Source of the DNA: Chthoniobacterales bacterium
GTDB taxonomy: Bacteria > Verrucomicrobiota > Verrucomicrobiia > Chthoniobacterales > JACTMZ01
DNA length: 64,000 nucleotides
Reading direction: 5' to 3'
Assembly: GCA_044371145.1 (NCBI GenBank)
Contig: JBILUI010000001.1
Location: forward strand, 3,497 to 67,496
The notes beneath the pieces were generated by a model. The model was given only the letters and a program-made list of their open reading frames with translations, ran no database searches and was not told the origin of the DNA. Positions 5,633 to 64,000 of the stretch are shown in pieces (positions within the stretch are counted from its first letter, which is position 1; every line of letters starts with the position of its first letter). The position numbers and the translations under genes are program-made.

Positions 5633-6733
5633 TTATTTGCGTGCAGCGAGACGAGCATAGAGAGCCTCAACCGTCCGCGCCTGTTGGCGTGCGTCAAATG
5701 ATGCCGTCACCTTCCCGCGCGCAGCGTGTCCTTGGGATGCTCGCAGCTCGGCGGATTGCAGATAGCGCCCGAGGACGGACGAGAAATCGTCCGCAGAACC
5801 GGGCTGCGCAGTCGATCCGCCATCACCGTCGCCAAGCAGTTCGAGGCATCCGTCGACTGCGGAAACGACGCAAGGCAAGCCGGACGCCATGGCTTCGAGC
5901 AGAATCATCGGCGTGCCTTCGTAGTCGGAGGTCAGAAGAAACACATCCGCAGCGGCGAGAACAGTCCGCGTGTCGCGAAATCCGAGCATCGCGACATTGC
6001 CGATTTTGTTTTGCGAAATGATCTCGCGCAGAGCCTGTTCTTCGGGGCCCGTTCCGGCGATGACAAAGCGCACCCCGGGGAAACGCCGTGCGATCTCGAG
6101 GAAAAGCGGCCAGTTCTTTTGAGGATGGAGGCGTCCCAGTCCGGCGACGACGAGAGATTCGGCGGGAATGCCGAGTTCTCGGCGGGCTGACATACGGACC
6201 TCGGCGCCGGCCGGGGCGAAACGTTCCGTGTCCACTCCGTTGGCGAGAAAGGAAATGCGTGCGGGATCGACGTTCTCACGCGCAATAACATCATCCCGCG
6301 TCGACCGCGAGACCGCGTAAATGTGCGAGGAGAGACGATTGGTTGCAGCATCGATCCACGTGGCGACCGCACTCCCGGTTCGCGCGCGATCGTTGCAGTG
6401 GTCGTGGTTGACGAGCGCGCGCTGTCCGCACAGTGCGGCAAGCGGTTTGCCGATCCAGTTCGAGCCGAAGAGGTGAAAATGAACCACATCGTATCGTCCG
6501 CGGCGCAGCAAGCGTGGCAGGGAAAGGAGATAGCCGGGCGGAAATTTTCCACGGGAAAGGAAATGCACGGGCACACCCTCCTTCTCCAGCGCGTCGGCAA
6601 ACACGCCGCGACCGTGCATCGGCGCCACTTCCATTTCGATGGCCGACCGGTCGCGGAAGCGGGAGAGATTGACCACCACAGTCTGCGCGCCCCCGAGATC
6701 GAGGCTGTCAATGACGTGGAGAACGCGGATCAT
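5633..6733 (-). CDS. Glycosyltransferase, GT4-like (GT-B fold)
   Basis: N-terminus MIRVLHVIDSLDLGGAQ. C-terminal donor-binding region LLTSDYEGTPMILLEAMASGLPCVVS. The ATG overlaps the upstream stop (ATGA at 6730..6733). Confidence 0.85.
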   Translation of the reverse strand: MIRVLHVIDSLDLGGAQTVVVNLSRFRDRSAIEMEVAPMHGRGVFADALEKEGVPVHFLSRGKFPPGYLLSLPRLLRRGRYDVVHFHLFGSNWIGKPLAALCGQRALVNHDHCNDRARTGSAVATWIDAATNRLSSHIYAVSRSTRDDVIARENVDPARISFLANGVDTERFAPAGAEVRMSARRELGIPAESLVVAGLGRLHPQKNWPLFLEIARRFPGVRFVIAGTGPEEQALREIISQNKIGNVAMLGFRDTRTVLAAADVFLLTSDYEGTPMILLEAMASGLPCVVSAVDGCLELLGDGDGGSTAQPGSADDFSSVLGRYLQSAELRASQGHAARGKVTASFDARQQARTVEALYARLAARK

Positions 6734-7215
6734 GCGCCGACCGGGCGGGCGGGATTGCCCGCCACCGTGCAGCCTGCGGGCACGTCGTGGAGCACGACAC
6801 TGCCGGCGCCGATTTTCGCATCGTCGCCGATTTCGATGCGTCCGATGATCACGCTGCTACAGCCGATGTCGACGCGGTCTCCGATCACCGGACAATCGTC
6901 GGACTCGCGCCGGTTACCGATCGTCGTACCATGGCGCAGCGTACAGTCGGAGCCGATGACCGCCGACTCGTGGACCACCAAACCGTAGCCGTGGTGCAAA
7001 CGCAGTCGTGGTCCGACTTTCGCTTTGTGGTTGAGTTCAATGCCCAACTCCCACCACACGATTAGTTGGTAGACAAAGAGATAAGGTGCAGCCAGCCAGC
7101 GGATACATTTCGGCCACCGGTGCAACTTTTGCGCGAAGCGGAATGAGCCGAGAATGAATTTCATCCGCAGGTCCTGCGGATTCACGCCCCAATCCTGCCA
7201 GATACCGTCGCTCAT
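6730..7215 (-). CDS. Serine-acetyltransferase-like (CysE/WcaB-type) LbH O-acetyltransferase
   Basis: Hexapeptide-repeat C-terminus (IGSDCTLRHGTTIGN, PVIGDRVDIGCSSVIIGRIEIGDDAKIGAGSVV, AGNPARP). I chose the ATG at 7215 (MSDGIWQDW) because it forms an ATGA overlap with the upstream stop. The ORF-track start is 7302. Confidence 0.8.
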   Translation of the reverse strand: MSDGIWQDWGVNPQDLRMKFILGSFRFAQKLHRWPKCIRWLAAPYLFVYQLIVWWELGIELNHKAKVGPRLRLHHGYGLVVHESAVIGSDCTLRHGTTIGNRRESDDCPVIGDRVDIGCSSVIIGRIEIGDDAKIGAGSVVLHDVPAGCTVAGNPARPVGA

Positions 7216-8312
7216 GCGTGTGCTTCTCCCCCACCCAATCCGCGCAGGAACGCACCGGTTTCTTTGTCGCTGTCGTGCATCTCGTTGACGAAACGCTCGC
7301 ATCCCTCCTGCATGCGCTCAAGACCGGACGTGTCGGCCATCATGGATTTTGCGCCGCCAACCAGTTTCCCGAAATCTTGTTCAGCGTGGAAACCGGGGCG
7401 GTAAAGACCGAAGAGGTCATCGGGATTCACCGCGAGTGAGAGCAGAGCGGCACGGCCGAGCCCGGCCTGGATGAAGCTGTTGGGCCAACCCTCCCACTCC
7501 GAAGTGTTGACGAAAACGCGCGCGCGATCGTAGTGCCGCTGCACCTGACTGTAGGGCACGCTCTCGATGAAACGCACATTGGACAGCGAGGCAGCGCGCA
7601 CCGCCACGCGTTGGTAAAGGTCGCGATCTTGGGCCGGGCAGATCATCTCGAAGGAGTTGTCAGGCAATGCTTCCGCGAGATCGAGGAACAGCTCCGGTCT
7701 TTTCATCGGCACGCAACGCGAGACCCAGAGAAAGTCCGTGTCTTTGGGCGGTCGCTCGCCGTCAGGACGCGGCACGAGAAGATAGCGGTAGAAGGATGCT
7801 TCCATCCCGCGGCGACGGTAATGCGCGAGTTGGTCGCGCGTGATGGCGTGTCGCGCATCACAGCGGCGAAGGGCAAATTCGAAAACGCCGCCCAACAAAG
7901 GATGTGCCCGCCGGTATTCGCCGTTCACCTCGGTATCCAGGGCACAAATGAAATCAATTTTGTAGCCGAGCGAGGGCCGCCAGAGCCAGAGGACGAAGAG
8001 CCAGGCGGTCCAGCCCATGACCACCACCCAATCAGGTTTTTCTTCCCGCAGCACCCGGAAGACGCGCGGCATAGAAGCGATCATCTCGGGCATTCGACCC
8101 GTGTGGAACTTTCCGGCATTGCGCACGCGCACGCCCTGCAAGACAGCTTGATCTGCTTGTCCTGTGTCGCCGGCGGCGATGACCACATCGTGTCCATGCC
8201 GACCAAGCGACCGCGCAAGCAGTGCGACCTGCAACTCGGCACCTCCTGAGGTCAGGGTCGAACCCTCGTCGAGCGCGAGATGTGCGTGGCTGGAAAGAAA
8301 AAGGATCTTCAC
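7212..8312 (-). CDS. Glycosyltransferase, GT4-like
   Basis: GTG start. N-terminus KILFLSSHAHL..GGAELQV and C-terminal VFVNTSEWEGWPNSFIQAG region, as in GT-B retaining transferases. Confidence 0.8.
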   Translation of the reverse strand: MKILFLSSHAHLALDEGSTLTSGGAELQVALLARSLGRHGHDVVIAAGDTGQADQAVLQGVRVRNAGKFHTGRMPEMIASMPRVFRVLREEKPDWVVVMGWTAWLFVLWLWRPSLGYKIDFICALDTEVNGEYRRAHPLLGGVFEFALRRCDARHAITRDQLAHYRRRGMEASFYRYLLVPRPDGERPPKDTDFLWVSRCVPMKRPELFLDLAEALPDNSFEMICPAQDRDLYQRVAVRAASLSNVRFIESVPYSQVQRHYDRARVFVNTSEWEGWPNSFIQAGLGRAALLSLAVNPDDLFGLYRPGFHAEQDFGKLVGGAKSMMADTSGLERMQEGCERFVNEMHDSDKETGAFLRGLGGGEAHA

Positions 8313-8344
8313 GCCGCTAATAAAAGGTTAAATTGCAGGCCGCA

Positions 8345-9319
8345 ATGCCTGTTGCTTTCCATCTTCCCCTTCGTCATCGCCCCGACGCCAGCCGCCAGCA
8401 GGCATGGCAGACGGGCGGGGTTGTCCCGGTCGAAGCGGAAGGCAAAACAGCCACGGCCCAGGCGTGGATTTATCAGACTTGGTTGCATCTTTCCCGCTCG
8501 GGCGCCGAAGTCTCGTTGGTCGAGGAGCTTCCGCGTGAAGGCGTGGCGGTGACGCTCAACGGATGGCTCAGGCCGGATTTCCTCGCGCCGCGCGAACTTT
8601 TCGTCGCGGGAGTGGTAGCCGACGGACTGCCCCATCCCGGTGTCGACCTGCAGATTGTGCAAAACCTTTGGCATGCGCGGCGTCTGACCGGCGCTTTTTT
8701 CATGCCACACTGGCCGCAACCGGGTTTGGTTCCGCGCGATCCCGCGCGCGGAACGAAAATGGAGAGGCTCTGTTTCTTCGGCGACCCGAAAAATCTCGCG
8801 GCCGGTTTGCGCGCCCCGGAGTGGCAACAGAAACTCCTTGAAACAACCGGGGCGCATTTCGAGCAGCGGGGCGCGGAGCGTTGGCACGATTACCATGATG
8901 TGGATGCCGTAGTTGCCGTGCGCGGATTCGGAAACGCAAACCAACCGCACAAACCGGCGACAAAACTTTACAACGCTTGGCTGGCAGGAGTGCCTTTTAT
9001 CGGCGGAAACGACTCGGCTTACCGCGCGGAAGCAGCACCCGACACCGATTACCTGATGGCCGGGTCGCCCGATGAGGTCATCGACTTGGTGCTGAAGATG
9101 CGCAACTCGTCGGAATGGCGTTCGAAAATCACGACACGTGGCCGGAAACGCTCAGAAGAAGTAGGCGGCCGGAAATTGACTCAACGCTGGAGCACATTAC
9201 TCGACTTCATGGCACAGCAACGGGAGAAAAAAATGCGCAAAACCAAGTGGCGCCTTGCCTCGGAGCGCGTGTTCAAAGCGACGTTGTACAAAGCGGACTC
9301 GCTGCGCCGGCGCGACTAG
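8345..9319 (+). CDS. Hypothetical protein, possibly glycosyltransferase-like
   Basis: Long ORF with codon usage like its neighbours. No motif I can assign beyond a GT-B-like C-terminal stretch (KPATKLYNAWLAGVPFIGG). ATG at 8345; the ORF-track TTG is at 8333. Its stop shares the tetranucleotide CTAG with the convergent GT2 at 9316. Confidence 0.5.
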   Translation: MPVAFHLPLRHRPDASRQQAWQTGGVVPVEAEGKTATAQAWIYQTWLHLSRSGAEVSLVEELPREGVAVTLNGWLRPDFLAPRELFVAGVVADGLPHPGVDLQIVQNLWHARRLTGAFFMPHWPQPGLVPRDPARGTKMERLCFFGDPKNLAAGLRAPEWQQKLLETTGAHFEQRGAERWHDYHDVDAVVAVRGFGNANQPHKPATKLYNAWLAGVPFIGGNDSAYRAEAAPDTDYLMAGSPDEVIDLVLKMRNSSEWRSKITTRGRKRSEEVGGRKLTQRWSTLLDFMAQQREKKMRKTKWRLASERVFKATLYKADSLRRRD

Positions 9320-10305
9320 AAGAATCTTTCGCGCAACCAACGAAGCGTGCCGGGCGGATCGCAAGAAAAGGCGCCGAAAATTTCCGGAAGCGCGGCGATT
9401 GGGTTTTCGCTGGTCCCAGCCAAGCGCAAATGCCAGCGGAATTGCGTGGAACGAGGTCCGGAGGAGCACTGCGGATAGCGCGCTGTGAATTCGTTTTCGA
9501 GACGCGCTTGCAATTCGTGAAAGGCCCTTCGACGCGCGGCCGGTAATCCGCGACGGAATTCCGCGCACAACGCGGACTCATCGGGAGAAAGACTTCTTCC
9601 CAAAAGAATAGCTGTTTGCCGGCCGGCAGCACGACTGGCTTCCTCCTCGGCCAAGCTGCGACCGGAGCGAGAGAGAGAATCATCCGAACGGCGGTAACTG
9701 ACCAAGCGCGCAGGCAGATTCGCCGTGGGTGAATTGTTCAGAACGCGCACCCAGAGGTCGTAATCCTGCGCGATGCGATAGCTCTCATCGTAACCGCCGT
9801 ATTTCTCCAGCACGGCAGCGCGACGGAAGACAACGGATGTGTGGAGAAACGGATTGAGCAGCATCGACGTCCAAAGGATTCCTGCCTCGCCGCACGGCAC
9901 ATCGAGCAATCCGACCTTTCGCCCCGCTTCGTCGATAAGAACACCCTGCGTGCCGAGGAGAATCACGTCAGGGTGCTTGTCCAAAAATTTCATCTGCGCG
10001 GCAAGGCGCCGGGGATCGCTAAGGTCGTCCGCGTCCTGGCGCGCCACCCAATCGCCGCGGCATTCGCGCAGCCCCTTATTCAAGGAAGCGGTCTGGCCGA
10101 TATTCGTCCCGTTGGTCACCACGCGGATGCGCGGATCTTTGGCCGCCCAATCCGCGAGCACCTGCGGCGTCGCGTCGTCGGATGCGTCGTCAACCACCAC
10201 CATTTCCCAATCGGCAAATGTTTGCCGGGCGATGCTGGCCATGGAGGCGTCGAGGTAAGAGCCACCGTTGCGCACGGCCATGAGAACGCTGATCGGGGGA
10301 GTCAT
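9316..10305 (-). CDS. Glycosyltransferase family 2
   Basis: ISVLMAVRNGGSYL, VVVDDASDDAT and QDADDLS are GT-A/GT2 hallmarks. The ATG at 10305 gives an ATGA overlap with the upstream stop. The ORF-track start 10506 would overlap that gene by ~200 nt. Confidence 0.88.
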   Translation of the reverse strand: MTPPISVLMAVRNGGSYLDASMASIARQTFADWEMVVVDDASDDATPQVLADWAAKDPRIRVVTNGTNIGQTASLNKGLRECRGDWVARQDADDLSDPRRLAAQMKFLDKHPDVILLGTQGVLIDEAGRKVGLLDVPCGEAGILWTSMLLNPFLHTSVVFRRAAVLEKYGGYDESYRIAQDYDLWVRVLNNSPTANLPARLVSYRRSDDSLSRSGRSLAEEEASRAAGRQTAILLGRSLSPDESALCAEFRRGLPAARRRAFHELQARLENEFTARYPQCSSGPRSTQFRWHLRLAGTSENPIAALPEIFGAFSCDPPGTLRWLRERFF

Positions 10306-11423
10306 CGCGACAAAAGCGACCGAAAGATTTCGCGGTGGGCGCCGGTCCACGCGGCGGCTTCGAACTTTCTCTCCGCGCGGGCCCTTGCCGCGATGGAAGC
10401 GGCTTCGATGTTCCCCCAAAGATCCACGACCGCGGCGGCCAGCTGCCCGACCGGCGGCGTGAGCATGCGATCCCAAACGAGAGGCAACGGCAGCAGACGC
10501 GCGCAAGCTGCATCGGTCATTTCGGGAAGTCCTCCCGTTGCCGAGCCCACCACCGGCAAACCGCAGGCCAGAGCCTCAGCGACCACGGTCGGACAAGGAT
10601 CGAGATACTTCGGATGTACGAGGATATCGTGCGCGCGGTAAAGATGCGGCGCTTCTTCCTGATCGAACGCCGGTTGCAAAAGAACCGCATCGGAGACACC
10701 AAGCTCGCGCAAGTAGTCGAGAGTTTCTTCCTTTCCGCGGCGCCACTGCAGCGATCCGGCCACGGTCAGTGTGGCCGGCATGCCTTCGCGGCGAAGAGCG
10801 TGCAGCGTATCGATCGCCGCAAAGACGCGGTCGCGATAAGCATGCGTCCCCATGGCGAGAAGACGCGGGGCTGCGGGCCGCGATGCGCAGCGAGCCGGAT
10901 GAAATTTGGACAGGTCGACAGGATTGAGCAAAACCCGCGACGGTTTTTCGACCGGACCGAGAAAGCGGTTGGCCGACTTGAGGCAAAAATCGCTCTGGTA
11001 AACGATGAAGTCTGTCAAGGCACGCAGTCGCCGCATCGGCGCGTTGTGCCTCTCCGCCTCTCCGCCGGCCCAGCCCGGATAGCCCACGCCGTTCTGGTTC
11101 CAAACCACGGCGATATTTTTGCGCCGGCACTCGGCGACGAGGTCTTCCGCGAAATGCGGCGGCACACTGCTAACCAAGTAAAGAATGTTGAACTTCTCCT
11201 CGTCACAACGGAAAGCGCGTTGCAGGGAAAGAAGTTTGACCGCACCACCGCGCACCAGACGTCCGTCATCGAGAACTCCGCCGAAGCACAGCACCGGCTC
11301 CGTGCCGTCGGCTCTCCGGACGTCGCGGCGTTGCTTCTGCCACCGACGGCGGTCGGGCAAGTCGAGAACGGCGCGGAGAGCGGACTTCAACCGCCACGGA
11401 ACAATATCGGTAAAATTGCTCAT
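10302..11423 (-). CDS. Glycosyltransferase, GT4/GT1-like
   Basis: C-terminal ILVHPKYLDPCPTVVAEALACGLPVVGSATGGLPE. ATGA overlap with the upstream gene at 11420..11423. Confidence 0.85.
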   Translation of the reverse strand: MSNFTDIVPWRLKSALRAVLDLPDRRRWQKQRRDVRRADGTEPVLCFGGVLDDGRLVRGGAVKLLSLQRAFRCDEEKFNILYLVSSVPPHFAEDLVAECRRKNIAVVWNQNGVGYPGWAGGEAERHNAPMRRLRALTDFIVYQSDFCLKSANRFLGPVEKPSRVLLNPVDLSKFHPARCASRPAAPRLLAMGTHAYRDRVFAAIDTLHALRREGMPATLTVAGSLQWRRGKEETLDYLRELGVSDAVLLQPAFDQEEAPHLYRAHDILVHPKYLDPCPTVVAEALACGLPVVGSATGGLPEMTDAACARLLPLPLVWDRMLTPPVGQLAAAVVDLWGNIEAASIAARARAERKFEAAAWTGAHREIFRSLLSR

Positions 11424-13081
11424 CGTTCGATTTTGTAGAGCAGAATTGATGCCCCGACTTCTTCCACCGGTTGTTCCTTGGATAACCAGGCGAATTGGTC
11501 GTAAGCCGGAACACCGGTGCCGAGGAGCAAATTCTGCCTACTAATCGCCACCCATCCTTCGATGCGGGTGTGGGGCGGCAAGTCGATGGTTTCCGGCAAA
11601 GGAAAACGGGCCAAGCTGATTCCTTTGCTGCCATTGTAGCGGATGTTCAAGCGATCGATGTTGCGCCGCTCGCAGGCCATGGCGAGTCGGCGCAAATCCT
11701 GGCCCCAATCGAGATCGCTGTCTGCCGCGACAGCTTCCGGTTTGCTTCCGGCCAAGACGTTGAAGTAAGCGAGATAATCCGGATGCGCGGCGAACGAGGA
11801 TGCTGCGCACGAGGCGATAATGGTGATTGTGGCGACTCTGCCCAAAAGCGGATGGCGCGCGGTTTGCCAGAGCCACGCGGCACCGGCACCGGCAACCACG
11901 GCGAGCAGAGGGTAGACGGAAAGAATCTGCCGCAAGCCGTTGTGCGGGGTGAAAAAAATCCCCGCGAGAACGATCGCGACGGCAGCGAGCAAGGGAGCGA
12001 ACACCGGCCAGCAGCCGCGGACTTGCCACGACGCTACGCAGCCGGCGGCCACGAGCAGCAGAAAAGAAGCCGGCGTTTTCACAGCCAGCAGCACGGGATA
12101 AAACAACCACCATCCTTCCTTGCCTACCGAGCCGAGGAACCAAGCCAGATGACCTTCGTCGCGGCGAAAATAAACCACGTCGAACAATCCCCAGAAAAAA
12201 TCCAAAGCTGGAAGCGGCAGAGCTTGTGCCACGCTGCGCGCCGCCGGCGAGAGCGGTCCCAAACCAGCAAGGACGGACTCCAGTTCCCCGCCCGCGCCGC
12301 CCTGGAGGATCGTTCCAAAAGAAAAGCGGTAAACCGCCCAGACAGAAACAAGGCAAAAGGTCGCGGCAATCAGCAGTGAGAGCAACGCGCCACGGAGAGA
12401 AAGAACGGCAGCGCCTATTTTCGCTCCACGACGCCCGAGAAACCAAGCGAGGCAAACGGCCGCGCCTCCCGCGGCGAGGAACGCGATGGCGGAAAATTTC
12501 GCTGTGATGGCTAGCCCCGCGGATACTCCCAAGACGGCTGCGTTCATCCAGCCAGGCTGCTCGAGCCACCGGAACAAGGCGTAAAGACTGGCGGCGACCA
12601 AGGCCGCGCACGCCATGTCGAGCGAAGCCAGACCGCCATGAGCCAAGACTGGCGGGAGCAAGGTGAAGAGAAAGGTGGCGACAAGCGCCGGCATCTCGCC
12701 GGCGCAGCAACGTGTCCAAGCCGCCACGACGAGGGAAGCGAGAACGAAAAAGGGGAGGACACCGAAGCGGGCCAGAGCGAGATTGCGTTCGTAGAGACCC
12801 CCTTCGTGCAACAACGCATTCCCATCGGTCCAATGATCCGCCGCTCCGGGGATTCCGCGCAACCCGGCAAAATAAGGCCCAGCCGCCATGGCAATGCGGG
12901 CCAGTGGCGGATGGAGACGTTCATGGGTGATGCGGCCGTGCTCCCACCACTGCAAACCCGCGGCAAGATGTGCAGGCTCGTCCCACGTCTGCCAAAAGGC
13001 ATCGTAAGTGGCGATGATACGCACACACCCCAATCCCACGATCGCGCCGAGAACCAACGCATACCAAGTTTGCTTCATCAT
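11420..13081 (-). CDS. GT-C fold membrane glycosyltransferase (GT39/GT83, PMT/ArnT-like)
   Basis: Many hydrophobic segments. The first-loop acidic motif TWDEPAHL followed by HPPL is typical of polyprenyl-phosphate-sugar-dependent GT-C enzymes. The ATG at 13081 gives an ATGA overlap with the upstream stop; ORF-track start 13102 is also possible. Confidence 0.85.
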   Translation of the reverse strand: MMKQTWYALVLGAIVGLGCVRIIATYDAFWQTWDEPAHLAAGLQWWEHGRITHERLHPPLARIAMAAGPYFAGLRGIPGAADHWTDGNALLHEGGLYERNLALARFGVLPFFVLASLVVAAWTRCCAGEMPALVATFLFTLLPPVLAHGGLASLDMACAALVAASLYALFRWLEQPGWMNAAVLGVSAGLAITAKFSAIAFLAAGGAAVCLAWFLGRRGAKIGAAVLSLRGALLSLLIAATFCLVSVWAVYRFSFGTILQGGAGGELESVLAGLGPLSPAARSVAQALPLPALDFFWGLFDVVYFRRDEGHLAWFLGSVGKEGWWLFYPVLLAVKTPASFLLLVAAGCVASWQVRGCWPVFAPLLAAVAIVLAGIFFTPHNGLRQILSVYPLLAVVAGAGAAWLWQTARHPLLGRVATITIIASCAASSFAAHPDYLAYFNVLAGSKPEAVAADSDLDWGQDLRRLAMACERRNIDRLNIRYNGSKGISLARFPLPETIDLPPHTRIEGWVAISRQNLLLGTGVPAYDQFAWLSKEQPVEEVGASILLYKIER

Positions 13082-23703: not shown

Positions 23704-23790
23704 GAAGATCGGAACATTTCTGAACCACCTTGTGCGGGGCTTGTCCTTACCTTGACCGCCACCCGCATCGGCCTAATCTTCCCGCGCACG

Positions 23791-30432: not shown

Positions 30433-30460
30433 GGGACGTTCGATCTGCTACATACGCTTA

Positions 30461-45209: not shown

Positions 45210-45500
45210 CAATTCAGACGGTCGGCAATTGAGTAAAATAAGTCATGCTGTTAGAAGTTCGTTTAATGGCACCGCAGGAGAGGGATACAGATTCGGAGCG
45301 AGAAAGCGTCGCCGTCCAACAAAGCCGCCACACTTTTTGATGAAGCTGATATGCAAGAGGCGACGAAGTATTCATAGTTGCTGATGGCCACGCTGATGGA
45401 GGGACGTTTGCTCATCTCAAATACGGAATCGTAGATTTCAAGCTACGATTAATCCGATGCTCCATAAGCCGCCTCGGTTCTTGGACGCATCGATGCGGTT

Positions 45501-57544: not shown

Positions 57545-58210
57545 TCATATGGTCACCGAACGAGCCGGCACGCCGAAGACGGTCGATCCCGCCGGAACAT
57601 CGCGCGCGACCACGGACCCGGCTCCTACCGTTGCCCCGTCGCCGATGCGCGCGCCGGGAAGGATACTCGCATGCGGGTGAATGGTGACCCCGTCTCCAAC
57701 GATGACGCCACCACCGGCGAAAACAAAGGCGCCGACGTGGCAGCATTTGCCGAAACGCACATCGTGGCCGGCGGTCACATGTGCCGTCAGAAAAGTGTCA
57801 GCGCCGATGGAGACATCGCACGAAACAACGCAATACGGGCCGACCACGGCGCCGTCGGCCATTTCGACACCTCCGCCGATTTTGGCCGACGGTTCGCGCA
57901 AGACGGCAAACTTCGCACCGCGGCCACGCAACATGTCCGCGTATTTTCGACGATCGACCGAATTACCGATGGCGCAGACGAAAAGATCGTTCTCGCGCGG
58001 CCGGTAAAGCTGGGGCGTGCCGATGACGGGCGCTCCTACTGGGTCAATTCCGGGCCGGTCATCCAGAAATCCGGCAAGCTGCCAAACACAGCGTTCTCCC
58101 TCCGCCGATTGGATCCCGGCGGCCAAGTCGCGCACCTCGCGACCAAAGGCGCCCGCGCTCACGATGATGAGATTTTTCTTCACCGCAACGGCTGCACGAG
58201 ACCTTTCCAA
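57545..58210 (-). CDS. NeuD/PglD-type LbH sugar N-acyltransferase
   Basis: KKNLIIVSAGAFGREV followed by hexapeptide repeats (GPYCVVSCDVSIGADTFL..VGAFVFAGGGVIVGDGVTI..IGDGATVGAGSVV). TTG at 58210; a GTG at 58183 ((M)KKNLIIV) is an alternative start. Confidence 0.85.
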   Translation of the reverse strand: MERSRAAVAVKKNLIIVSAGAFGREVRDLAAGIQSAEGERCVWQLAGFLDDRPGIDPVGAPVIGTPQLYRPRENDLFVCAIGNSVDRRKYADMLRGRGAKFAVLREPSAKIGGGVEMADGAVVGPYCVVSCDVSIGADTFLTAHVTAGHDVRFGKCCHVGAFVFAGGGVIVGDGVTIHPHASILPGARIGDGATVGAGSVVARDVPAGSTVFGVPARSVTI

Positions 58211-58214: not shown

Positions 58215-59261
58215 TCAGACCTCGATAATTGGAGGACAAACCACCGGTCCGACTTCGCAAGCCAAGGTTCCCCATGAAAGCCCCACTCCGAACCCGCAGA
58301 GAAGAAGGCGAAGCCCTCCGTTCAGGAGTCGCGCGCCGAGTTGATCGACCATGGTGAGCGGGATCGTTGCCGAACTCGTGTTGCCGAAATCGGCCAGCGT
58401 GCCCGGACATTTTCCAGCATCCAACCTCAGCGATTTAACGATGGTATCGTTGATCAGCCGGCTGGCCTGGTGAAAAACGAAAGCATCGACTGAATCCGCC
58501 GACCATCCCGCGGCCTCCAAGGCAGCGCGCACGGCAGCGGGAACGACACGAACGGAGAAATTGAAAACGTCGGCACCCTTCATCTGATACTGCGTGTCGA
58601 AATATATCCGTCCGAGAACATCTTCCTTTGATGGAAGCGCCATCCCGTCCAAGCCGGGCTTGCCGCCGGAGCGCCTCTCCATGATGTAGTCCCATCCGCT
58701 CCCGTCGGTATGGAGCGAAAAGTGCATGGGCGCGGCCGCAGCGCGGCGCTCCAAGCCGACCGCAACTGCCGCATCGCCGAAGAGAGGCGCCCGAGGCGAC
58801 GCGGGATTCGGCTTTCCTGCTGCATCGCCGACGACAAGCAAAACCTTCGATGCCTCCGACGGGGCCAATAAACTCCCCGCGACGAGCATCCCATAGGGAA
58901 AACCGGAACACCCCAGATTGATGTCGAAAGCGGCACAGTCGGTCGAAAGACCGAGACGATGCTGCAGGATGCAGGCAGTGGACGGGTAGGCCACGTCGCC
59001 TGATTGCGTGACCACGACCAAAGCCTCGACTTCACTCTTATCCCAAACTAAGTCGGCGAGAATGCGCTCTGTGGCAAAGCGGGCGAGGTCGGAAAAGAAC
59101 AAGTCCGGCGGGCAGATACGCCTACGCAGAACACCGGTCGCGGACGAAAACCTCCGCCGCGCCTCCGGAGACTCGTAACCAGACTCCTCCACCGTCTCCA
59201 CGCTGGCAGGAACCGCCGCGCAGAGGCCGGCTAAATGGATGCCATGAAGAATGCTCTGCAC
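58215..59261 (-). CDS. 3-oxoacyl-ACP synthase III (FabH-like KAS III)
   Basis: Catalytic Cys in DINLGCSGF, His in FVFHQAS, Asn in FGNTSSATIP. The GTG start shares one nucleotide with the ACP stop. Confidence 0.88.
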   Translation of the reverse strand: MQSILHGIHLAGLCAAVPASVETVEESGYESPEARRRFSSATGVLRRRICPPDLFFSDLARFATERILADLVWDKSEVEALVVVTQSGDVAYPSTACILQHRLGLSTDCAAFDINLGCSGFPYGMLVAGSLLAPSEASKVLLVVGDAAGKPNPASPRAPLFGDAAVAVGLERRAAAAPMHFSLHTDGSGWDYIMERRSGGKPGLDGMALPSKEDVLGRIYFDTQYQMKGADVFNFSVRVVPAAVRAALEAAGWSADSVDAFVFHQASRLINDTIVKSLRLDAGKCPGTLADFGNTSSATIPLTMVDQLGARLLNGGLRLLLCGFGVGLSWGTLACEVGPVVCPPIIEV

Positions 59262-59497
59262 TAAAGTTTGCGCTGCACGAGCGCGATTAGATCCTTCAGA
59301 GAGCAGCAGGATTCCAACTCTTCACCCGAGACCTGCACGCCATAATCAGCGTAAACCTCCGCAACAAGCATGACAGCAGTTAACGAGTCCCAGCCCTCCA
59401 AGTCGCGCAGAACGCTGGTCAGAGCCAAACCCTGAGGAGCTTGTGCAAAGGCATTGTGCACCGCCGCGAAAAACTTTTCCTGATCGATCTCAGCCAT
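59261..59497 (-). CDS. Acyl carrier protein
   Basis: 78-aa acidic protein with the phosphopantetheine-attachment context LEGWDSLTAVML. Confidence 0.85.
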   Translation of the reverse strand: MAEIDQEKFFAAVHNAFAQAPQGLALTSVLRDLEGWDSLTAVMLVAEVYADYGVQVSGEELESCCSLKDLIALVQRKL

Positions 59498-59625: not shown

Positions 59626-59714
59626 TCAAAGGATGTCCACGCAGGTCCGCTGCGTCCGGTTGAACATAACCAAGCCCACCAGCACGACGGCGATGCTGAC
59701 AAAGGAGCTGAAAC
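59626..59714 (-). pseudogene. Orphan duplicate of the wzm 3-prime end
   Basis: The minus strand encodes ...SSFVSIAVVLVGLVMFNRTQRTCVDIL-stop. The last 23 codons are identical in protein to the end of wzm (60456..60524). The DNA differs at 12 of those codons, all synonymously (hand alignment). Confidence 0.75.
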
Positions 59715-59732
59715 GCAAGCAGCAGGAAAACA

Positions 59733-60167
59733 TCAGGGCGTCAGCAGTTCCACGCGCAGACCTTGGGACCGGAACAAATCAAAATCCGCGTCACGCGTAA
59801 CCCAAGTGCAACCGTGCTCGAAGGCAAGCGCTGCATGCTGGGCATCCGCCACCAGTTTGCCTTTGGCCGACACAGACTCGCAAAATGACCTCATTATGGT
59901 CCAATGCCGCTCGTCGGGTCCGAGCACAACACGACCGCGTGCAGCTAAGATCGAATCGATCACCGCAAGGGCCTGGGAAAGTGGAGTGGGCCTTGGCTGA
60001 AAGCCAGGATGTGTTACCACACGGACGAAGGACGCTGCCACCAAGAGCGAAAGCGCGAAAGGTTCGCCACCATTGACCAGACGCTCCATCCACTCCCGGT
60101 AAAAATCATGATCCGGGTCCTCGCGACGATGCGCGTAGACCAGAGTGTTCACGTCGGGCATGAGCAT
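59733..60167 (-). CDS. vapC: PIN-domain toxin VapC (type II toxin-antitoxin)
   Basis: 144 aa. Acidic PIN residues are in the expected contexts (MPDVNTLV, ...DAQHAALA, VTRDADF). It follows a small antitoxin ORF after a 5-nt gap. Confidence 0.88.
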   Translation of the reverse strand: MLMPDVNTLVYAHRREDPDHDFYREWMERLVNGGEPFALSLLVAASFVRVVTHPGFQPRPTPLSQALAVIDSILAARGRVVLGPDERHWTIMRSFCESVSAKGKLVADAQHAALAFEHGCTWVTRDADFDLFRSQGLRVELLTP

Positions 60168-60172: not shown

Positions 60173-60391
60173 TCAGCGCCCATCATCGCGCAACGCGGCC
60201 AACTGCGACGGGGTTTGATGGATACCCGCAGGCTCGCCGAAAACAGGCATGGAGAACTGCTCCCTCCCCGTCCCGCTCCGGCGGTCGGAAAACAGGTGCT
60301 GTCGCAGGGCGGTGTTGACCAGATCGCTCAAGGTTTTGCCGGTGTTGGCCGCCTCGCGCTTGGCATGGCGAAAGACTTGATCGTTCAACAC
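60173..60391 (-). CDS. vapB: VapB-type antitoxin (ribbon-helix-helix)
   Basis: LNDQVFRHAKREAANTGKTLSDLVNTALRQHL is an RHH pattern. The GTG at 60391 is the first canonical start, but the stop-free in-frame upstream codons read KRITLV, which would complete the RHH beta-strand. The true start is therefore uncertain. Confidence 0.75.
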   Translation of the reverse strand: MLNDQVFRHAKREAANTGKTLSDLVNTALRQHLFSDRRSGTGREQFSMPVFGEPAGIHQTPSQLAALRDDGR

Positions 60392-60425: not shown

Positions 60426-60455
60426 CGGACAGCGTTGTCAAGCGGCCTGGCTTCC

Positions 60456-61313
60456 TCAGAGAATATCGACGCACGTCCTCTGCGTCCGGTTGAACATAAC
60501 GAGGCCGACCAACACTACCGCGATGCTGATAAAAAAGCTGACAACGATTTGCCAAAGATAGACGGTGCCATGGCCCATGAAGGCGAAGCGGAACGCCTCG
60601 ATGATAAAAACCATCGGATTGAGCGCGTAGACCCAGCGCCAGTTTTCCGGGACCATACTCAGCGGGTAAACCACGCAGCTGGCATACATCCAAAGCTGCA
60701 TGAAAAAGCTGAGCATGATTTGCAGGTCGCGAAAACGGGTGGTCACGGCGGAGACCATGCAGCCGACGCCCAAGCCGAGCGCGGCCATTTGCAACAAAAG
60801 CACGGGCAACACGACGATGCGCCAACCCATGGCGATGTCCGCCCCTTGGTGGAAATAATACACGTAAAAAATGAGAAAAAGCACCATTTGCATTCCGAAG
60901 CCGATGAGATTCGCAATAAGTTGAGAGATAGGCACGACCAGTCGTGGGAAGTAGACCTTGTCGAACAATCCGCGGTTGGAACTAAAGGTGGCCGCCGTAT
61001 TGGTGACGCAGTTGTTGAAGTAGCCCCAGCAAACGGTGCCGGCCAAAAAGAAGAGCAGGGGGGGTATTTCTCCGGTGGAAATCTTGGCGATCTTGTTGAA
61101 AACGAGGGTGAACATCAGGCTGGTGAACAGGGGCTGAATCACATACCAAGCCGAGCCAAGGATCGTCTGCTTGTAGCGCGAGACAAAATCGCGATGCACC
61201 AGGCGCATGATAAGTTCCCGGTATTCCCAAATTTCGCGGAAAGGGATATGGAGCAGTTTGTGCTCGGACGTGATGACCGTCGTCCACTGCGGGTTTTGGA
61301 CTGTTGAATTCAT
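60456..61313 (-). CDS. wzm: Polysaccharide ABC exporter permease (ABC-2 type, Wzm)
   Basis: 285 aa. N-terminal REIWEYRELIMRLVHRDFVSRYKQTILGSAWYVIQPL is typical of Wzm/TagG/KpsM permeases. About six hydrophobic segments. Confidence 0.92.
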   Translation of the reverse strand: MNSTVQNPQWTTVITSEHKLLHIPFREIWEYRELIMRLVHRDFVSRYKQTILGSAWYVIQPLFTSLMFTLVFNKIAKISTGEIPPLLFFLAGTVCWGYFNNCVTNTAATFSSNRGLFDKVYFPRLVVPISQLIANLIGFGMQMVLFLIFYVYYFHQGADIAMGWRIVVLPVLLLQMAALGLGVGCMVSAVTTRFRDLQIMLSFFMQLWMYASCVVYPLSMVPENWRWVYALNPMVFIIEAFRFAFMGHGTVYLWQIVVSFFISIAVVLVGLVMFNRTQRTCVDIL

Positions 61314-61568: not shown

Positions 61569-62084
61569 TCAGAGCTTCATGAAGCGGATGAGCCAGGGGA
61601 GAATCTTGCGCCCTTTGTCGAGCCAGTGCTTGAGGCGGTCGATGCGGTCGCGGGTGGCGCGGCGTTCTTTGGGCGGCAACTCTGCGAGCGATTCCTCCAT
61701 GCGCCGGATCCTTTCCGCTGCCATATCGATGCGAGGCTGGAGCTCGTCCTTGATGAAGGCCGTCGCGAAACGGCTGAGCTCCAGGTCGGCCACATAGTGG
61801 TCGCGACGATCACCACGCTCGTAAACCACCCGCACCGCCCCGAAAGAACGCAGGAGCTTCAGGCCTTGGCTGGCCGCGCCCAGGCTGATGCCGAGCCGGC
61901 CCATGATCTCGTCCATGGCCATCGGTTTGGGGGCCACAAAAAGCAGCCCGTAGATTTCACCAACCGATTTGGGCAATCCTATGAGGCGCAAGAAGTTGAT
62001 AAACATCTCGATCGCCTCGACCTCCAACTCGGTCAGGCGACTCTTGTCTTCCTCCACAAAAAGCGGCGGCGGCACAGTGCGCAT
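61569..62084 (-). CDS. GbsR/MarR-type winged-helix transcriptional regulator
   Basis: Winged-helix region PMAMDEIMGRLGISLGAASQGLKLLRSFGAVRVV followed by a helical C-terminus. I chose the ATG at 62084 (MRTVPPPLF). The ORF-track start 62141 extends into an A/T-rich promoter-like stretch. Confidence 0.72.
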   Translation of the reverse strand: MRTVPPPLFVEEDKSRLTELEVEAIEMFINFLRLIGLPKSVGEIYGLLFVAPKPMAMDEIMGRLGISLGAASQGLKLLRSFGAVRVVYERGDRRDHYVADLELSRFATAFIKDELQPRIDMAAERIRRMEESLAELPPKERRATRDRIDRLKHWLDKGRKILPWLIRFMKL

Positions 62085-62287
62085 CTTATAGGGCACGATT
62101 TCAGGAGCTTCAAGAAAAAATGAAATAATTGATACGCCCACGCACCGGTTTATCGAAGTGGGAACGAGAATCCTAAAGCTGTTGCCTTTGCCCTTGCCCG
62201 GCCGCGCGGAGAATTGCCTGATGGTCTTGTGCGGCGGTGGAGCCTCAACAGAATCCTACTGGGAGCGGGATTCCCGGAAAAACAACA

Positions 62288-64000
62288 ATGAAAGCAATAA
62301 CTTCCTGGCGGCTGGCTCTCGGAGGAGCTGCCCTGTCGGCCGCCTACTGTGCCGCGTTGCTCCTTCCACAGGCCCGCATGGTCGGCGAGCCAGCGACCCT
62401 TCGCGACTACGCCGTGATCTGGTCGCTCGTGGCTTGCGTGTTCAACACCGGAGTCCTGGCAGTGTTGGCAATTGTCTGCCCCTGGTGGGCTGGAGGAAAG
62501 ATCTCCGAGACCGGCCCACTCAAAACAGAGGAAAGAAGTTCATCATGGTTCTGGGTTGGTGTGACGGCGGCTGCGATTGCACTCTTCGCTATGACATTAC
62601 CGAGACTCGGCCAAAGTCTCTGGGACGATGAGGAGACTTCTCTGCGATTCTCCATCTTGGGGCGCTATCTTCGCGTACAGCCGGATGGCCGGCCGCAGTT
62701 TCACGAGGCTTCGTGGCTTGAGACACTTTTTTACTACAAGCAGCCAAACAACCACGTATTTCACAACATCCTTTCGCGCGTCAGCAACTCAACGTGGAGA
62801 AGCCTGAAGCGCCCGAGCGGGCTGCAGTTCAATGAGGAGGCCGTGCGCTTGCCGGCTTTTGTGGCTGGAATCGCGGGGATTTTCTCCCTCGCACTGTTAC
62901 TCCGGGCGATGGGTTACCCAAAGGCGGGTTTGGCCGCTGCTTGGCTGTTGGCTTTTCACCCTTGGTACCAGCGCTATGTCTGTGAGGCGCGTGGGTACAG
63001 TCTTGTCTTGGCCCTGCTTCCGGTGGCGACCCTTGTCTGGCGGGAAGCCTTGCGCACCGGGCGATGGCAATGGTGGTCGGTATTCGCGCTCGTGCAATTC
63101 GTCCTAGTTTGGACCTACCCGGCTGTTCTCTTTGTGCTGCTTCCTTTGAATCTTGCCACGCCTTGGCTTGCACTCAGAGGACGCGATTTGGCCAAACCGC
63201 CCTATGTCTCGCTGGGAAGATGGTTTTGCTGCCAATCGCTGGCCGCTGTCGCGATGATGCAGGTCGCCGCTCCGCTCCTGCCGCAGGCTCGCGAGTATTT
63301 CCGCCCGCTGGACTTCCCACCGATAGATTCCCGCTGGCTCGCCGACTTCCTCAGTTATTTGGCTGCCGGACTGCCATGGGCAACGGATGAACCCGGGCAA
63401 ATACCATCTCATCCCCAGCTTGGCGAAATGGTAGCCGCGTCGCCCACGACATGGCTTGGTGTGGGCATGGCAGCGTTGTTGCTTGCTGCCTGGGGAATGG
63501 TGACAGTGGCAAAGCACAACGAAACCGCTTGGAAATTGGTTTTCGGCTGCACACTGCTCGGGCCAATGGTCCAAATGGTGTACGCTGCGTGGCATCGGCT
63601 TACGTTCTGGGAGTGGTATATCCTCCACGTGCTTCCGTGGGCGATAGCGCTGACATGTGTCGGCTTGGATCAAATGTCGGCACTCACCCACTCCCGTCTT
63701 CCCGGATTCAGGGCTGCTCCTAGAATGATCGTTCTGCTTGCGGTCTTTTCTTACGCATGGCTAACCGAACCGGTCAGACGATGGCAATCGGCGAGGCCGG
63801 TTACGCCGACACGCGATGCCGTCCTGTGCACACGCCGCAATTTGGATCCCGACGACCCCGAGAACAGGCGCATTATGACCGCTGGCCTGACAAATCCACC
63901 TGCCTGCTACGATGCGCACGTTTTTTTCGTCAAAGATTTGGGTGAACTCGTATTGCTCTGCCGCATGTCCGATCTCACGGGCAGGCCACTGTGGCTCAAC
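62288..64000 (+). CDS. Uncharacterised GT-C-like membrane protein, paralogue of 23791..25863 (3-prime end beyond the window)
   Basis: ATG at 62288 followed by 571 stop-free codons to the window end (hand-translated; not in the ORF track). It shares SLWDDE, PNNHVFHNIL, RLPAF.AG, ARGY.LV, WQWW and WTYPAV.F with the 23791 gene. Confidence 0.7.
   Translation, partial: MKAITSWRLALGGAALSAAYCAALLLPQARMVGEPATLRDYAVIWSLVACVFNTGVLAVLAIVCPWWAGGKISETGPLKTEERSSSWFWVGVTAAAIALFAMTLPRLGQSLWDDEETSLRFSILGRYLRVQPDGRPQFHEASWLETLFYYKQPNNHVFHNILSRVSNSTWRSLKRPSGLQFNEEAVRLPAFVAGIAGIFSLALLLRAMGYPKAGLAAAWLLAFHPWYQRYVCEARGYSLVLALLPVATLVWREALRTGRWQWWSVFALVQFVLVWTYPAVLFVLLPLNLATPWLALRGRDLAKPPYVSLGRWFCCQSLAAVAMMQVAAPLLPQAREYFRPLDFPPIDSRWLADFLSYLAAGLPWATDEPGQIPSHPQLGEMVAASPTTWLGVGMAALLLAAWGMVTVAKHNETAWKLVFGCTLLGPMVQMVYAAWHRLTFWEWYILHVLPWAIALTCVGLDQMSALTHSRLPGFRAAPRMIVLLAVFSYAWLTEPVRRWQSARPVTPTRDAVLCTRRNLDPDDPENRRIMTAGLTNPPACYDAHVFFVKDLGELVLLCRMSDLTGRPLWLN

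Follow-up and report, generated by a model that had tools for sequence, protein, structure and literature searches.

A very large glycan locus of the ABC-transporter-dependent class, rich in decoration genes, in an uncultured freshwater Chthoniobacterales population

ATP-binding cassette (ABC)-transporter-dependent O-polysaccharide loci, such as those of Escherichia coli O8/O9a and the Klebsiella O-antigens, use a WecA and a WaaL that are encoded elsewhere, and in O8/O9a chain terminators stand beside the ATPase Wzt. In the present study we have analysed 64,000 nucleotides from a Chthoniobacterales bacterium (contig JBILUI010000001.1, positions 3,497 to 67,496; hereafter the window), most of which is occupied by a very large locus of this well-known class. 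Like E. coli O8/O9a, Klebsiella and the Aquifex aeolicus WzmWzt system, it combines a permease Wzm and a Wzt of about 400 residues with cytoplasmic glycosyltransferases and no Wzx/Wzy, and as in other loci of the class the initiating enzyme is not in the locus and methyltransferases lie beside Wzt. Unlike these loci, it is 5-10 times larger, its wzm and wzt stand 5.3 kb apart, the C-terminal domain of its Wzt has no Wzt_C signature and is predicted to be alpha/beta, and it contains sulfotransferases, three MBOAT pairs, GT-C proteins and a conserved winged helix-turn-helix (wHTH) regulator upstream of Wzm. What is unusual here is the scale, the three MBOAT cassettes, the split wzm/wzt with a DegT-GT2 fusion and a FabH/acyl carrier protein (ACP) module, and a core that is lineage-wide. 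On balance we lean towards the view that this is the main cell-surface glycan locus of the organism (O-polysaccharide or capsule-like), acting through the ABC-transporter-dependent route, and we favour, with similar caution, one main Wzm/Wzt-dependent glycan that carries most of the decorations.

The mycobacterial galactan/arabinogalactan and Klebsiella gmlABC/Gtr systems likely follow the same logic, in which a lipid-linked backbone exported by Wzm/Wzt is elaborated by GT-C enzymes at the outer face; post-export modification is known in mycobacterial arabinogalactan and in Klebsiella gmlABC, and the present exporter has the NCBIfam galactan Wzt and Wzm models among its best matches. In contrast to these systems, neither a polyprenyl-phosphate-sugar synthase nor a GtrA-like flippase was recognised in the window (one is present in the related locus L018), and the GT-C assignments of the window fall below the Pfam cut-off. 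Clusters for sulfated bacterial polysaccharides are known in cyanobacteria and marine Gammaproteobacteria, and synechan is made by a Wzx/Wzy-type route. The synechan cluster xss of Synechocystis contains glycosyltransferases, sulfotransferase(s) and a methyltransferase (PMC8205485), and a putative sulfated glycosaminoglycan cluster of Pontiella (Verrucomicrobiota) brings glycosyltransferases, a sulfotransferase, a methyltransferase and a VioA-type aminotransferase together (PMC7356697). Unlike both, the present locus has Wzm/Wzt with a conserved regulator, is much larger and carries MBOAT cassettes, and it is known from its genes alone.

Genes were called with a codon-usage model and cross-checked against public gene calls; all called genes were compared with Pfam, and many also with NCBIfam, taking the Pfam gathering score as the cut-off. 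From position 5,633 to the window edge the coding fraction is 0.948 (94.8%), and the minus strand carries 49 of the 54 genes, the plus strand the other 5, which bears out the nearly gap-free glycan locus of more than 58 kb described in the first-pass annotation of this DNA. Its counts of one Wzm/Wzt exporter, three MBOATs, one acyltransferase-3, three LbH acyltransferases, two (DegT) aminotransferases, six methyltransferases and two sulfotransferases are likewise all confirmed by Pfam. The locus is chromosomal and essentially complete in the window, with a length of about 58.6 kb; the last GT-C-like gene (653 aa, full length in L001) stops about 250 bp beyond the right edge, at about 64,249, and is followed by unrelated genes (PgpA, UbiA). 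The earlier suggestion that the locus may be incomplete in the window did not hold, extension of the contig to the right having added only the remainder of this gene, then an Ig-domain protein and unrelated genes. Pfam scans of the window and about 10 kb on either side detected no initiating phosphoglycosyltransferase (Bac_transf/WecA-type), Wzx, Wzy, Wzz, polysaccharide co-polymerase (PCP)/Poly_export (OPX), WaaL-type ligase or NDP-sugar dehydratase; the absences noted before for the window therefore extend to its flanks, and reliance on genes elsewhere, also proposed before, is supported for the initiating phosphoglycosyltransferase and the 4,6-dehydratase. As regards the packing itself, plus-strand genes are wedged into the minus-strand array at 8312-8345, 23703-23752 and 30432-30461, with divergent starts only 20-63 bp apart and convergent ends overlapping by 4-11 nt, and such tight spacing leaves almost no promoter room and implies antisense read-through.

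The export core comprises the following features, among which a toxin-antitoxin pair is included for its position:

61569..62084, minus strand: wHTH regulator, GbsR/MarR-like (CudC-like, E 5e-17)
60456..61313, minus strand: Wzm ABC-2 permease (ABC2_membrane 84 bits; NCBIfam Wzm and KpsM models match)
60173..60391, minus strand: putative antitoxin (position upstream of PIN; family matches weak)
59733..60167, minus strand: PIN-domain toxin (Pfam PIN 57.6 bits)
59626..59733, minus strand: apparent remnant of a wzm 3' end (87-nt direct repeat, 83% DNA identity)
53881..55101, minus strand: Wzt ATPase, 406 aa (ABC_tran; best PDB sequence matches Aquifex Wzt)
53162..53875, minus strand: FkbM methyltransferase directly after Wzt (48 bits; same position in L017 and L019)
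52205..53119, minus strand: FkbM methyltransferase (Methyltransf_21 31 bits; ortholog in L021)

Wzm matches the NCBIfam Wzm/RfbD (E 4e-19) and KpsM (E 6e-17) models, both below their equivalog cut-offs. Wzt resembles Aquifex Wzt in sequence (PDB sequence search, E 2e-65) and in structure (Foldseek against 7k2t, E 3e-22), with a nucleotide-binding domain 34-41% identical and a structural alignment to the full-length Aquifex protein spanning 325 columns of the 406-residue query. Its homologs form more than 120 protein clusters of 64-81% identity over nearly the full length, C-terminal domain included, and all clusters with a source name come from metagenome-assembled genomes (MAGs) of Verrucomicrobia, Terrimicrobiaceae or Chthoniobacterales; the conserved C-terminal domain has many invariant Trp and Gly residues. 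The nearest model of the regulator is the GbsR-type CudC, weakly matched, and each of the six related loci described below has such a regulator, about 170 aa long, upstream of Wzm (every E <= 1e-62; 64-88% identical in the three that were aligned). The interval between wzm (61313->60456) and wzt (55101->53881) is filled, in order, by the antitoxin, the PIN toxin, an ACP, a FabH/KAS III-like enzyme, a PglD/VioB-like N-acyltransferase and the DegT-GT2 fusion. The FabH/ACP module, the PIN toxin-antitoxin insertion and the wHTH regulator are thus present in addition to what the first-pass annotation had listed.

The antitoxin-PIN pair is bracketed by an 87-nt direct repeat (59626-59733 and 60456-60541) corresponding to duplicated 3' ends of wzm. 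The distal copy ends a 35-codon open reading frame whose last 23 residues equal the C-terminus of Wzm, and since these residues are identical despite nucleotide differences, those differences are synonymous. This reading frame looks like the remnant of a second wzm allele, pointing to recombination at the wzm 3' end, and from the same arrangement the toxin-antitoxin pair is a secondary insertion there. In one public contig (L003 11028-11416, corresponding to window 59759-60147) part of the PIN gene is inverted right after the antitoxin region, owing either to faulty assembly or to an inversion at the level of strains.

Six verrucomicrobial Wzt loci (L017-L022) were inspected with flanks of ±10 kb, and orthologs between the window and its relatives were searched with local phmmer. 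All six show the regulator, then Wzm-Wzt, then co-directional glycan genes downstream. FkbM follows Wzt in three of the six, directly in L017 and L019 and two genes on in L021; DegT aminotransferases occur in four, and sulfotransferases in three, a fourth having an adenosine 5'-phosphosulfate (APS) kinase beside wzm. L021 carries a set of FabH-like, ACP, GT2, DegT and FkbM genes after Wzt, and next to its wzm are toxin-antitoxin genes of the PIN and YoeB types. Within 10 kb of Wzt, L017 holds orthologs of 46159-46848, 42193-42972, 36710-37708 and 38942-40000 in nearly the window order, and L024 holds the pair of GT47-like and GT-B genes (40155-41045, 38942-40000) in the same order as the window; in both, the distance from Wzt to these downstream orthologs of window 36.7-46.8 kb is 3-10 kb. 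Judged from this gene order, window 36.7-62 kb is tied to the Wzm/Wzt system. At the other end, a related Chthoniobacterales contig (L103) has the same left boundary (226-aa protein, RNA-recognition-motif (RRM) protein, MiaA, HflX, YjbQ), past which come the orthologs of the two terminal GT4 genes and then AlgX, AlgX and MBOAT1, these three directly adjoining one another; a sulfotransferase gene and orthologs of the genes at 9316, 10302, 15724, 14748 and 18279 lie further on. In all, window 5.6-27 kb has at least 10 orthologs there, and by the same kind of comparison window 5.6-29 kb is tied to the miaA-side boundary; the site is therefore conserved, with variable content and order. The synteny check proposed at the outset hence tied each half to its own context, Wzm/Wzt or the miaA-side boundary, but never showed the two halves joined.

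The mixture of decorations had been called an unusual combination for a bacterial locus, a claim that the relatives do not sustain: amination, N-acylation, methylation and sulfation beside Wzm/Wzt recur in related Verrucomicrobiota loci, and the mix is, at the level of gene content, lineage-typical and not a one-off. Sulfation genes lie within ±10 kb in four of the six verrucomicrobial Wzt loci, whereas of 76 unrelated Wzt loci 1 had a sulfotransferase homolog; for the regulator the figures are six of six versus 1 of 76, all from a comparison that is rough and biased, the queries having come from verrucomicrobial loci, and only suggestive. A metagenome scan with Wzt returned 80 loci, 4 of which are of the verrucomicrobial full-length type.

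Two amino-sugar modules, A and B, and the FabH/ACP pair stand around the exporter, with a further LbH acyltransferase near the left end of the locus:

49304..50251, minus strand: GT2, module A (62 bits; 42% identical to the GT2 half of 55385-57493)
50320..51516, minus strand: DegT/DesI-like sugar aminotransferase, module A (DegT 342 bits; TIGR04427 E 1e-148, below its cut-off)
51456..52235, minus strand: NeuD/PglB/VioB-family N-acyltransferase (LbH), module A (TIGR03570 165.9 bits, cut-off 160.8)
55385..57493, minus strand: DegT-GT2 fusion, module B (DegT 360 bits; Glycos_transf_2 66 bits in the C-terminal half)
57545..58183, minus strand: PglD/VioB-like N-acyltransferase, module B (Hexapep, PglD_N; TIGR03570 158.5 bits, just below 160.8)
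58215..59261, minus strand: FabH/KAS III-like enzyme (ACP_syn_III_C 80 bits; Cys-His-Asn triad residues intact)
59261..59497, minus strand: acyl carrier protein (weak PP-binding match, weak ACP models, DSL motif)
6730..7215, minus strand: LbH (hexapeptide) acyltransferase (Pfam Hexapep 40 bits)

The modules are paralogous (identity 59% for DegT, 42% for GT2 and 33% for LbH), and module A sits just downstream of the FkbM genes. Both aminotransferases best match the DesI/VioA type (DesI E 1e-141 and 1e-149), below the equivalog cut-off, and the product of each module would be an N-acylated 4-amino-4,6-dideoxyhexose. The adjacency of the ACP and the FabH-like enzyme suggests that they may provide module B with an acyl group other than acetyl; a literature search on FabH/ACP-linked N-acylation in O-antigen clusters returned nothing relevant. 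As in VioA/VioB and perosamine-type pathways, a DesI/VioA-like DegT protein is paired with a NeuD/PglB/VioB N-acyltransferase; unlike them, the module is duplicated, with one copy fused to GT2 and one copy linked to FabH/ACP, and the 4,6-dehydratase is not in the locus.

The genes for sulfation and methylation, together with a conserved protein of no known family, are as follows:

42193..42972, minus strand: sulfotransferase, Sulfotransfer_1 (55 bits, cut-off 22; L017 ortholog, 2e-73)
45501..46175, minus strand: sulfotransferase, Sulfotransfer_2 (67.9 bits, cut-off 22)
46159..46848, minus strand: conserved 229-aa protein (no family match; orthologs in L017 and L018, ~1e-90)
16560..17366, minus strand: class I S-adenosylmethionine (SAM) methyltransferase (Methyltransf_11, Methyltransf_23)
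30461..31273, plus strand: class I methyltransferase (Methyltransf_23 43 bits)
34026..34697, minus strand: class I methyltransferase (Methyltransf_11 23.5 bits, cut-off 21.2)
36127..36732, plus strand: sixth methyltransferase (Methyltransf_11 37.2 bits)

Both sulfotransferases have 5'-PSB- and 3'-PB-like motifs, of the type that binds 3'-phosphoadenosine-5'-phosphosulfate (PAPS), and their genes are embedded among glycosyltransferases. The 229-aa protein is present in three Wzt-linked loci (the window; L017 13759-14517; L018 17366-18175), each time 0-1 gene from a sulfotransferase, and might assist sulfation as an accessory factor or be a transferase that has escaped recognition. The sixth methyltransferase fills an apparent 760-bp gap; its SAM-binding motif INLGSG lies upstream of the first ATG/GTG/TTG, at 36268, and the gene either has a non-canonical start or is decaying.

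The acylation genes are arranged around three MBOATs:

19148..20218, minus strand: acyltransferase-3 membrane O-acyltransferase (Acyl_transf_3 86.7 bits)
21128..22087, minus strand: AlgX/AlgJ-type SGNH-like protein (ALGX 57 bits; DTHW and GDS motifs)
22063..23703, minus strand: AlgX-type SGNH-like protein (ALGX 78.7 bits; DSHW and GDS motifs)
25853..27286, minus strand: MBOAT1 (Pfam MBOAT 125.9 bits)
27364..29481, minus strand: secreted LamG-domain protein of the MBOAT1 cassette (Laminin_G_3 59 bits; L104 homolog adjoins an MBOAT, 1.6e-58)
31270..32412, minus strand: DltD-like SGNH partner of MBOAT2 (AlphaFold2/Foldseek fold; no Pfam model)
32409..33818, minus strand: MBOAT2 (Pfam MBOAT 83.6 bits; pair with partner conserved in L016)
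46845..47870, minus strand: probable SGNH-type partner of MBOAT3 (GSS...DGMH motifs; position after the MBOAT)
47879..49273, minus strand: MBOAT3 (Pfam MBOAT 103.5 bits)

All three MBOATs contain the histidine motif WHISLSTWL. The protein encoded at 31270-32412 belongs to a family of membrane-anchored proteins of about 370 aa with 135 homologs in a full HMMER search, and none of the 66 aligned homologs matches any Pfam family; in the alignment Gly90, Ser92 and His355 are invariant and Asp352 nearly so. Its AlphaFold2 model (pLDDT 92.3) has DltD as its top 12 Foldseek matches (E 7e-5 to 4e-3), followed by TesA-type SGNH esterases and PatB. The TM-score to DltD is only about 0.37 and the identity 11-13%, and the predicted resemblance is one of fold class and not of close kinship. 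In L016, the one homolog whose gene context was looked at, a 37%-identical protein directly follows an MBOAT that shares 62% identity with MBOAT2, the surrounding genes being unrelated. The protein at 46845-47870 is nearly an orphan, with 2 matches; its one distant homolog likewise follows an MBOAT, and a weak hhalign match links it to the DltD-like family (E 1e-4, probability 56%). The earlier count of four SGNH-type partners is accordingly reasonable, strong for three (two ALGX, one DltD-like fold) and suggestive for the fourth. For the LamG protein, sequence searches of NCBIfam and the PDB add nothing beyond Pfam Laminin_G_3. An opposite-strand GT-C gene (23752-25863) interrupts MBOAT1-AlgX-AlgX in the window, a cassette which is contiguous in L103 and L104 (10-14 nt spacing). 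Orthologs of MBOAT1 are 76-97% identical within Chthoniobacterales, and in the 8.2-Mb genome L104 the LamG protein, MBOAT, AlgX and AlgX lie together among glycoside hydrolases. From such contexts all three MBOAT pairs would seem to behave as portable cassettes.

The MBOAT1 cassette recalls alginate AlgI-AlgJ-AlgF-AlgX, cellulose WssH/WssI and peptidoglycan PatA/PatB in combining an MBOAT that carries the His with AlgX-family DxHW/GDS proteins. It differs from the alginate and cellulose systems in the absence of a synthase (Alg8/Alg44, BcsA) and of a recognisable AlgF, in the addition of a secreted LamG protein and in its conservation across bacteria of the PVC (Planctomycetes-Verrucomicrobia-Chlamydiae) group; multi-transmembrane (TM) processive GT2, PilZ, TPR and porin components (AlgK/E-type coupling) were not found in the window. 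MBOAT2 followed by a membrane-anchored protein of DltD-like fold with a Ser...Asp-x-x-His set is reminiscent of DltB-DltD, but no DltA/AMP-binding ligase is present and the single ACP gene is 26 kb distant, where it adjoins FabH and the PglD-like gene; the host is Gram-negative and the partner family has no Pfam model.

The glycosyltransferases outside the two amino-sugar modules, with three orphan genes, are:

5633..6733, minus strand: GT4, left end of the locus (Glycos_transf_1 101 bits, Glyco_transf_4; L103 ortholog at the same boundary, 7e-185)
7212..8312, minus strand: GT4 (Glyco_trans_4_4 55 bits; ortholog in L103)
8345..9319, plus strand: possible GT-B-like protein, weak (Glyco_trans_1_2 19.3 bits, under cut-off)
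9316..10305, minus strand: GT2 (Glycos_transf_2 106 bits; ortholog in L103)
10302..11423, minus strand: GT4-type GT-B (Glycos_transf_1 57 bits; ortholog in L103)
11420..13081, minus strand: polytopic GT-C-like protein (PMT_2 25.0 bits, cut-off 26.1; 9 predicted TM segments)
13078..14751, minus strand: GT-B, 557 aa (Glyco_trans_1_4 36.6 bits)
14748..15737, minus strand: weak GT-B candidate (Glycos_transf_1 20.7 bits, under cut-off; L103 ortholog, 1e-99)
15724..16518, minus strand: GT2 (Glycos_transf_2 26.5 bits, cut-off 23.3; ortholog in L103)
17386..18318, minus strand: orphan with an LDSDVIF DxD-like motif, possible GT-A (no Pfam, NCBIfam or PDB match)
18279..19151, minus strand: orphan (DD motif ILDDH; no family match; homolog in L103)
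20225..21094, minus strand: GT2 (Glycos_transf_2 95.7 bits; GC content 0.62)
23752..25863, plus strand: GT-C-like protein between MBOAT1 and AlgX (PMT_2 22.8 bits; 10 TM segments)
29500..30432, minus strand: GT2 (Glycos_transf_2 113.8 bits)
34766..35947, minus strand: GT61 (Glyco_transf_61 59 bits)
36710..37708, minus strand: orphan DxD-motif protein (no family match; ortholog in Wzt-linked L017, 2e-72)
37701..38945, minus strand: GT9, heptosyltransferase family (Glyco_transf_9 50.8 bits; NCBIfam heptosyltransferase models match weakly)
38942..40000, minus strand: GT-B (Glyco_trans_1_4 33.6 bits; orthologs downstream of Wzt in L017, 3e-119, and L024, 7e-147)
40155..41045, minus strand: weak GT47/RXYLT1-like protein (under cut-off; L024 ortholog, 7e-45)
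41042..42145, minus strand: GT61 (Glyco_transf_61 85.9 bits)
43002..43952, minus strand: GT2 (96 bits)
44304..45212, minus strand: GT2, low GC, 0.51 (71 bits; 40% identical to the GT2 at 20225-21094)
62288..64000 (window edge), plus strand: GT-C-like protein, the last gene of the locus (PMT_2 25.5 bits)

Sixteen glycosyltransferases score above the gathering threshold (eight GT2, five GT4/Glycos_transf_1 of GT-B type, two GT61 and one GT9), and six lie near or below it (three polytopic GT-C, two weak GT-B and one weak GT47/RXYLT1-like). About 20 enzymes of at least seven types had been counted before; the number agrees with these 16 and 6, but only five types are solid, or six to seven with the weak ones, and in the Pfam annotation of the reading frames, which confirmed the named families, this type count was the soft point. 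For the GT2 and GT4 proteins 0-1 TM segments are predicted, and no GT2 shows a multi-TM synthase architecture. The three GT-C proteins score 22.8-25.5 bits against PMT_2 (cut-off 26.1) with 7-10 predicted TM segments, for which they are plausible GT-C enzymes, and those at 23752-25863 and 62288 are paralogs, 37% identical. The three orphans might be additional GT-A enzymes, as their acidic motifs suggest; neither for them nor for the 229-aa protein at 46159-46848 did sequence searches of NCBIfam and the PDB yield a usable match. The GT2 at 44304-45212 has a GC of 0.51 in a locus of about 0.60, in a GC dip at 44-46 kb, and has the two largest gaps (351 and 288 bp) on either side; it may have been acquired recently from a foreign source.

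The analysis establishes the families of the genes and how they are ordered, their paralogy, their synteny with relatives and the fold of one partner protein. From what is known of ABC-dependent O-polysaccharide assembly, from which the order of the steps and their substrates are inferred, we propose that a lipid-linked glycan, initiated by an enzyme encoded elsewhere, would be extended at the cytoplasmic face by the roughly 20 soluble GT-A/GT-B glycosyltransferases, with incorporation of 4-amino-4,6-dideoxyhexose-type sugars made by the two paralogous N-acyltransferase/DegT/GT2 modules, one of which probably takes its acyl group from the adjacent FabH-like enzyme and ACP. Methylation and sulfation, given the SAM- and PAPS-using enzyme families, would take place in the cytoplasm, possibly followed by capping through the FkbM methyltransferases beside Wzt and then by export through Wzm/Wzt, after which the three MBOAT/SGNH-type pairs, the acyltransferase-3 and the three GT-C-like proteins could gain access to the glycan in the periplasm. 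The locus would thus be a mosaic, in which a regulator-Wzm-Wzt-FkbM core with variable cargo has received portable acylation cassettes and a PIN cassette.

Several observations weigh against this proposal, and a single glycan carrying every decoration is only partly supported. The C-terminal 145 aa of Wzt have no Pfam match even at E<=10 and no similarity to Wzt_C (PF14524), and the AlphaFold2 model of the domain (pLDDT ~90) is alpha/beta, with helices and strands mixed, and not a beta-sandwich; with such a non-canonical domain the capping step is therefore a guess. Neither the window nor the DNA near it encodes an initiating transferase, a ligase or a 4,6-dehydratase, and the pathway can therefore not be closed; NCBIfam recognised no polyprenyl-phosphate-sugar synthase among the GT2s, giving only generic sub-threshold matches. 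No relative was found that joins both halves of the locus, and gaps of 180-350 bp at 33.8, 35.9, 43.9, 45.2 and 55.1 kb could separate independent transcription units. Homologs of MBOAT1 57-60% identical occur in Planctomycetes, Kiritimatiellia and Poribacteria, a cross-phylum conservation that would fit a conserved substrate better than a strain-specific glycan; the L104 cassette has no glycosyltransferase or Wzm/Wzt gene within 10 kb, and the MBOAT2-partner and MBOAT3-partner pairs are seen elsewhere in non-glycan contexts. Where the first-pass annotation predicted an ABC-exported glycan that is acylated, methylated, sulfated and aminated, the glycan locus, its one exporter and the dense decoration genes stand, but the assignment of all acylations to that glycan is insecure because the cassettes occur elsewhere without glycosyltransferases or Wzm/Wzt.

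The same behaviour of the cassettes, namely the LamG-MBOAT-AlgX-AlgX set standing alone among the glycoside hydrolases of L104, the non-glycan contexts of the MBOAT2 and MBOAT3 pairs and the identity of MBOAT1 across PVC phyla, speaks for a composite locus, in which a Wzm/Wzt glycan (~36-62 kb) is accompanied by separate acylation cassettes for another, more conserved envelope polymer, for example peptidoglycan or an unrelated exopolysaccharide, and in which GT9 and GT-C might modify the lipopolysaccharide core or lipid A. A GT9 family member in mid-locus, the five gaps and the GC dip at 44-46 kb are further points in its favour. We hold this composite to be possible but rather doubtful, since there is only one exporter, with no synthase, Wzx/Wzy or second export route, the strand bias and packing are uniform across the region, and in L103, the closest relative with data, MBOAT-AlgX again lies among glycosyltransferases with a sulfotransferase at the same chromosomal site.

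The three PMT_2-like GT-C proteins raise, in addition, the idea of protein or S-layer glycosylation, in which a lipid-linked glycan exported by Wzm/Wzt would be moved onto secreted proteins by PMT_2-type enzymes; the large 1,060-aa Ig-domain protein encoded directly beyond the last GT-C gene would be a candidate acceptor, and no WaaL-type ligase is present in the locus. We regard this as improbable: every PMT_2 match is below its cut-off, the searches revealed no member of an oligosaccharyltransferase family (PglB, PglL, Wzy_C), most relatives lack GT-C proteins beside Wzm/Wzt, and WaaL is commonly encoded elsewhere. A group 2/3 (KpsMT) capsule was ruled out, as KpsC/KpsS/KpsD/KpsE, Poly_export and PCP were not detected, a synthase-dependent exopolysaccharide by the lack of any membrane synthase, and a plasmid or phage origin by the housekeeping genes that flank the locus on both sides.

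The host is an uncultured freshwater population of Chthoniobacterales (Verrucomicrobiota). The window has a GC content of about 60%, and its MiaA is 92% identical to that of a Chthoniobacterales MAG from Delaware Bay; the left end of the locus or the Wzm region is found again in many metagenome contigs that match at 99-100% identity wherever they overlap the window, which indicates a recurrent natural population. The contig of the Delaware Bay MAG (L006, JAFMJK010000036.1) stops exactly at the left edge of the locus, at window position 5610, which is consistent with assembly breaking at a strain-variable region; this was the single related MAG returned by a genome scan for relatives, and its stop at the boundary left no synteny information. 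To the left of the locus lie genes for the 226-aa protein, the RRM protein, MiaA, HflX, YjbQ and a solute-binding protein; the RRM-domain RNA-binding protein (3898-4521; RRM_1, 72 bits) has a long N-terminal extension and stands between miaA and the locus, a position it keeps in L103. To the right, the Ig-domain protein is encoded on the other strand (L001 3147-6329, about 3 kb past the window edge, directly after the last GT-C gene), followed by two unknown proteins, a HEAT-repeat protein, PgpA and UbiA; it might be a locus-related surface protein or simply a neighbour. Scans of the window for tRNA and Rfam families gave no match, and a promoter/terminator scan did no better than on shuffled sequence.

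Verrucomicrobiota are abundant in lakes, soils and guts, and to our knowledge their cell-surface glycans are almost uncharacterised. Known mechanisms are not overturned by the present study, which provides testable protein targets in the Wzt C-terminal domain, the DltD-like family of MBOAT partners and the 229-aa protein near the sulfotransferases. The regulator-Wzm-Wzt core is a conserved marker by which such loci can be found in metagenomes, with the locus of the window as a very large worked example, and a site that is fixed in the chromosome yet apparently hypervariable in content is relevant to interactions with phages and grazers and to gaps in MAG assembly. Tentatively, and with more doubt than conviction, we propose that there may be a dedicated surface-glycan system common to Verrucomicrobiota (Chthoniobacterales, Terrimicrobiaceae and relatives), in which a wHTH regulator, Wzm, a Wzt whose C-terminal recognition domain would be of a new type, and often FkbM capping would drive hypervariable, frequently sulfated O-polysaccharide-like glycans, together with a Pfam-less DltD-like family of MBOAT partners and a PVC-wide LamG-MBOAT-AlgX-AlgX cassette that would acylate an envelope polymer. 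Sulfation may be common in the lineage, and if the proposal is true, bacteria better known for degrading sulfated polysaccharides would routinely display sulfated glycans of their own.

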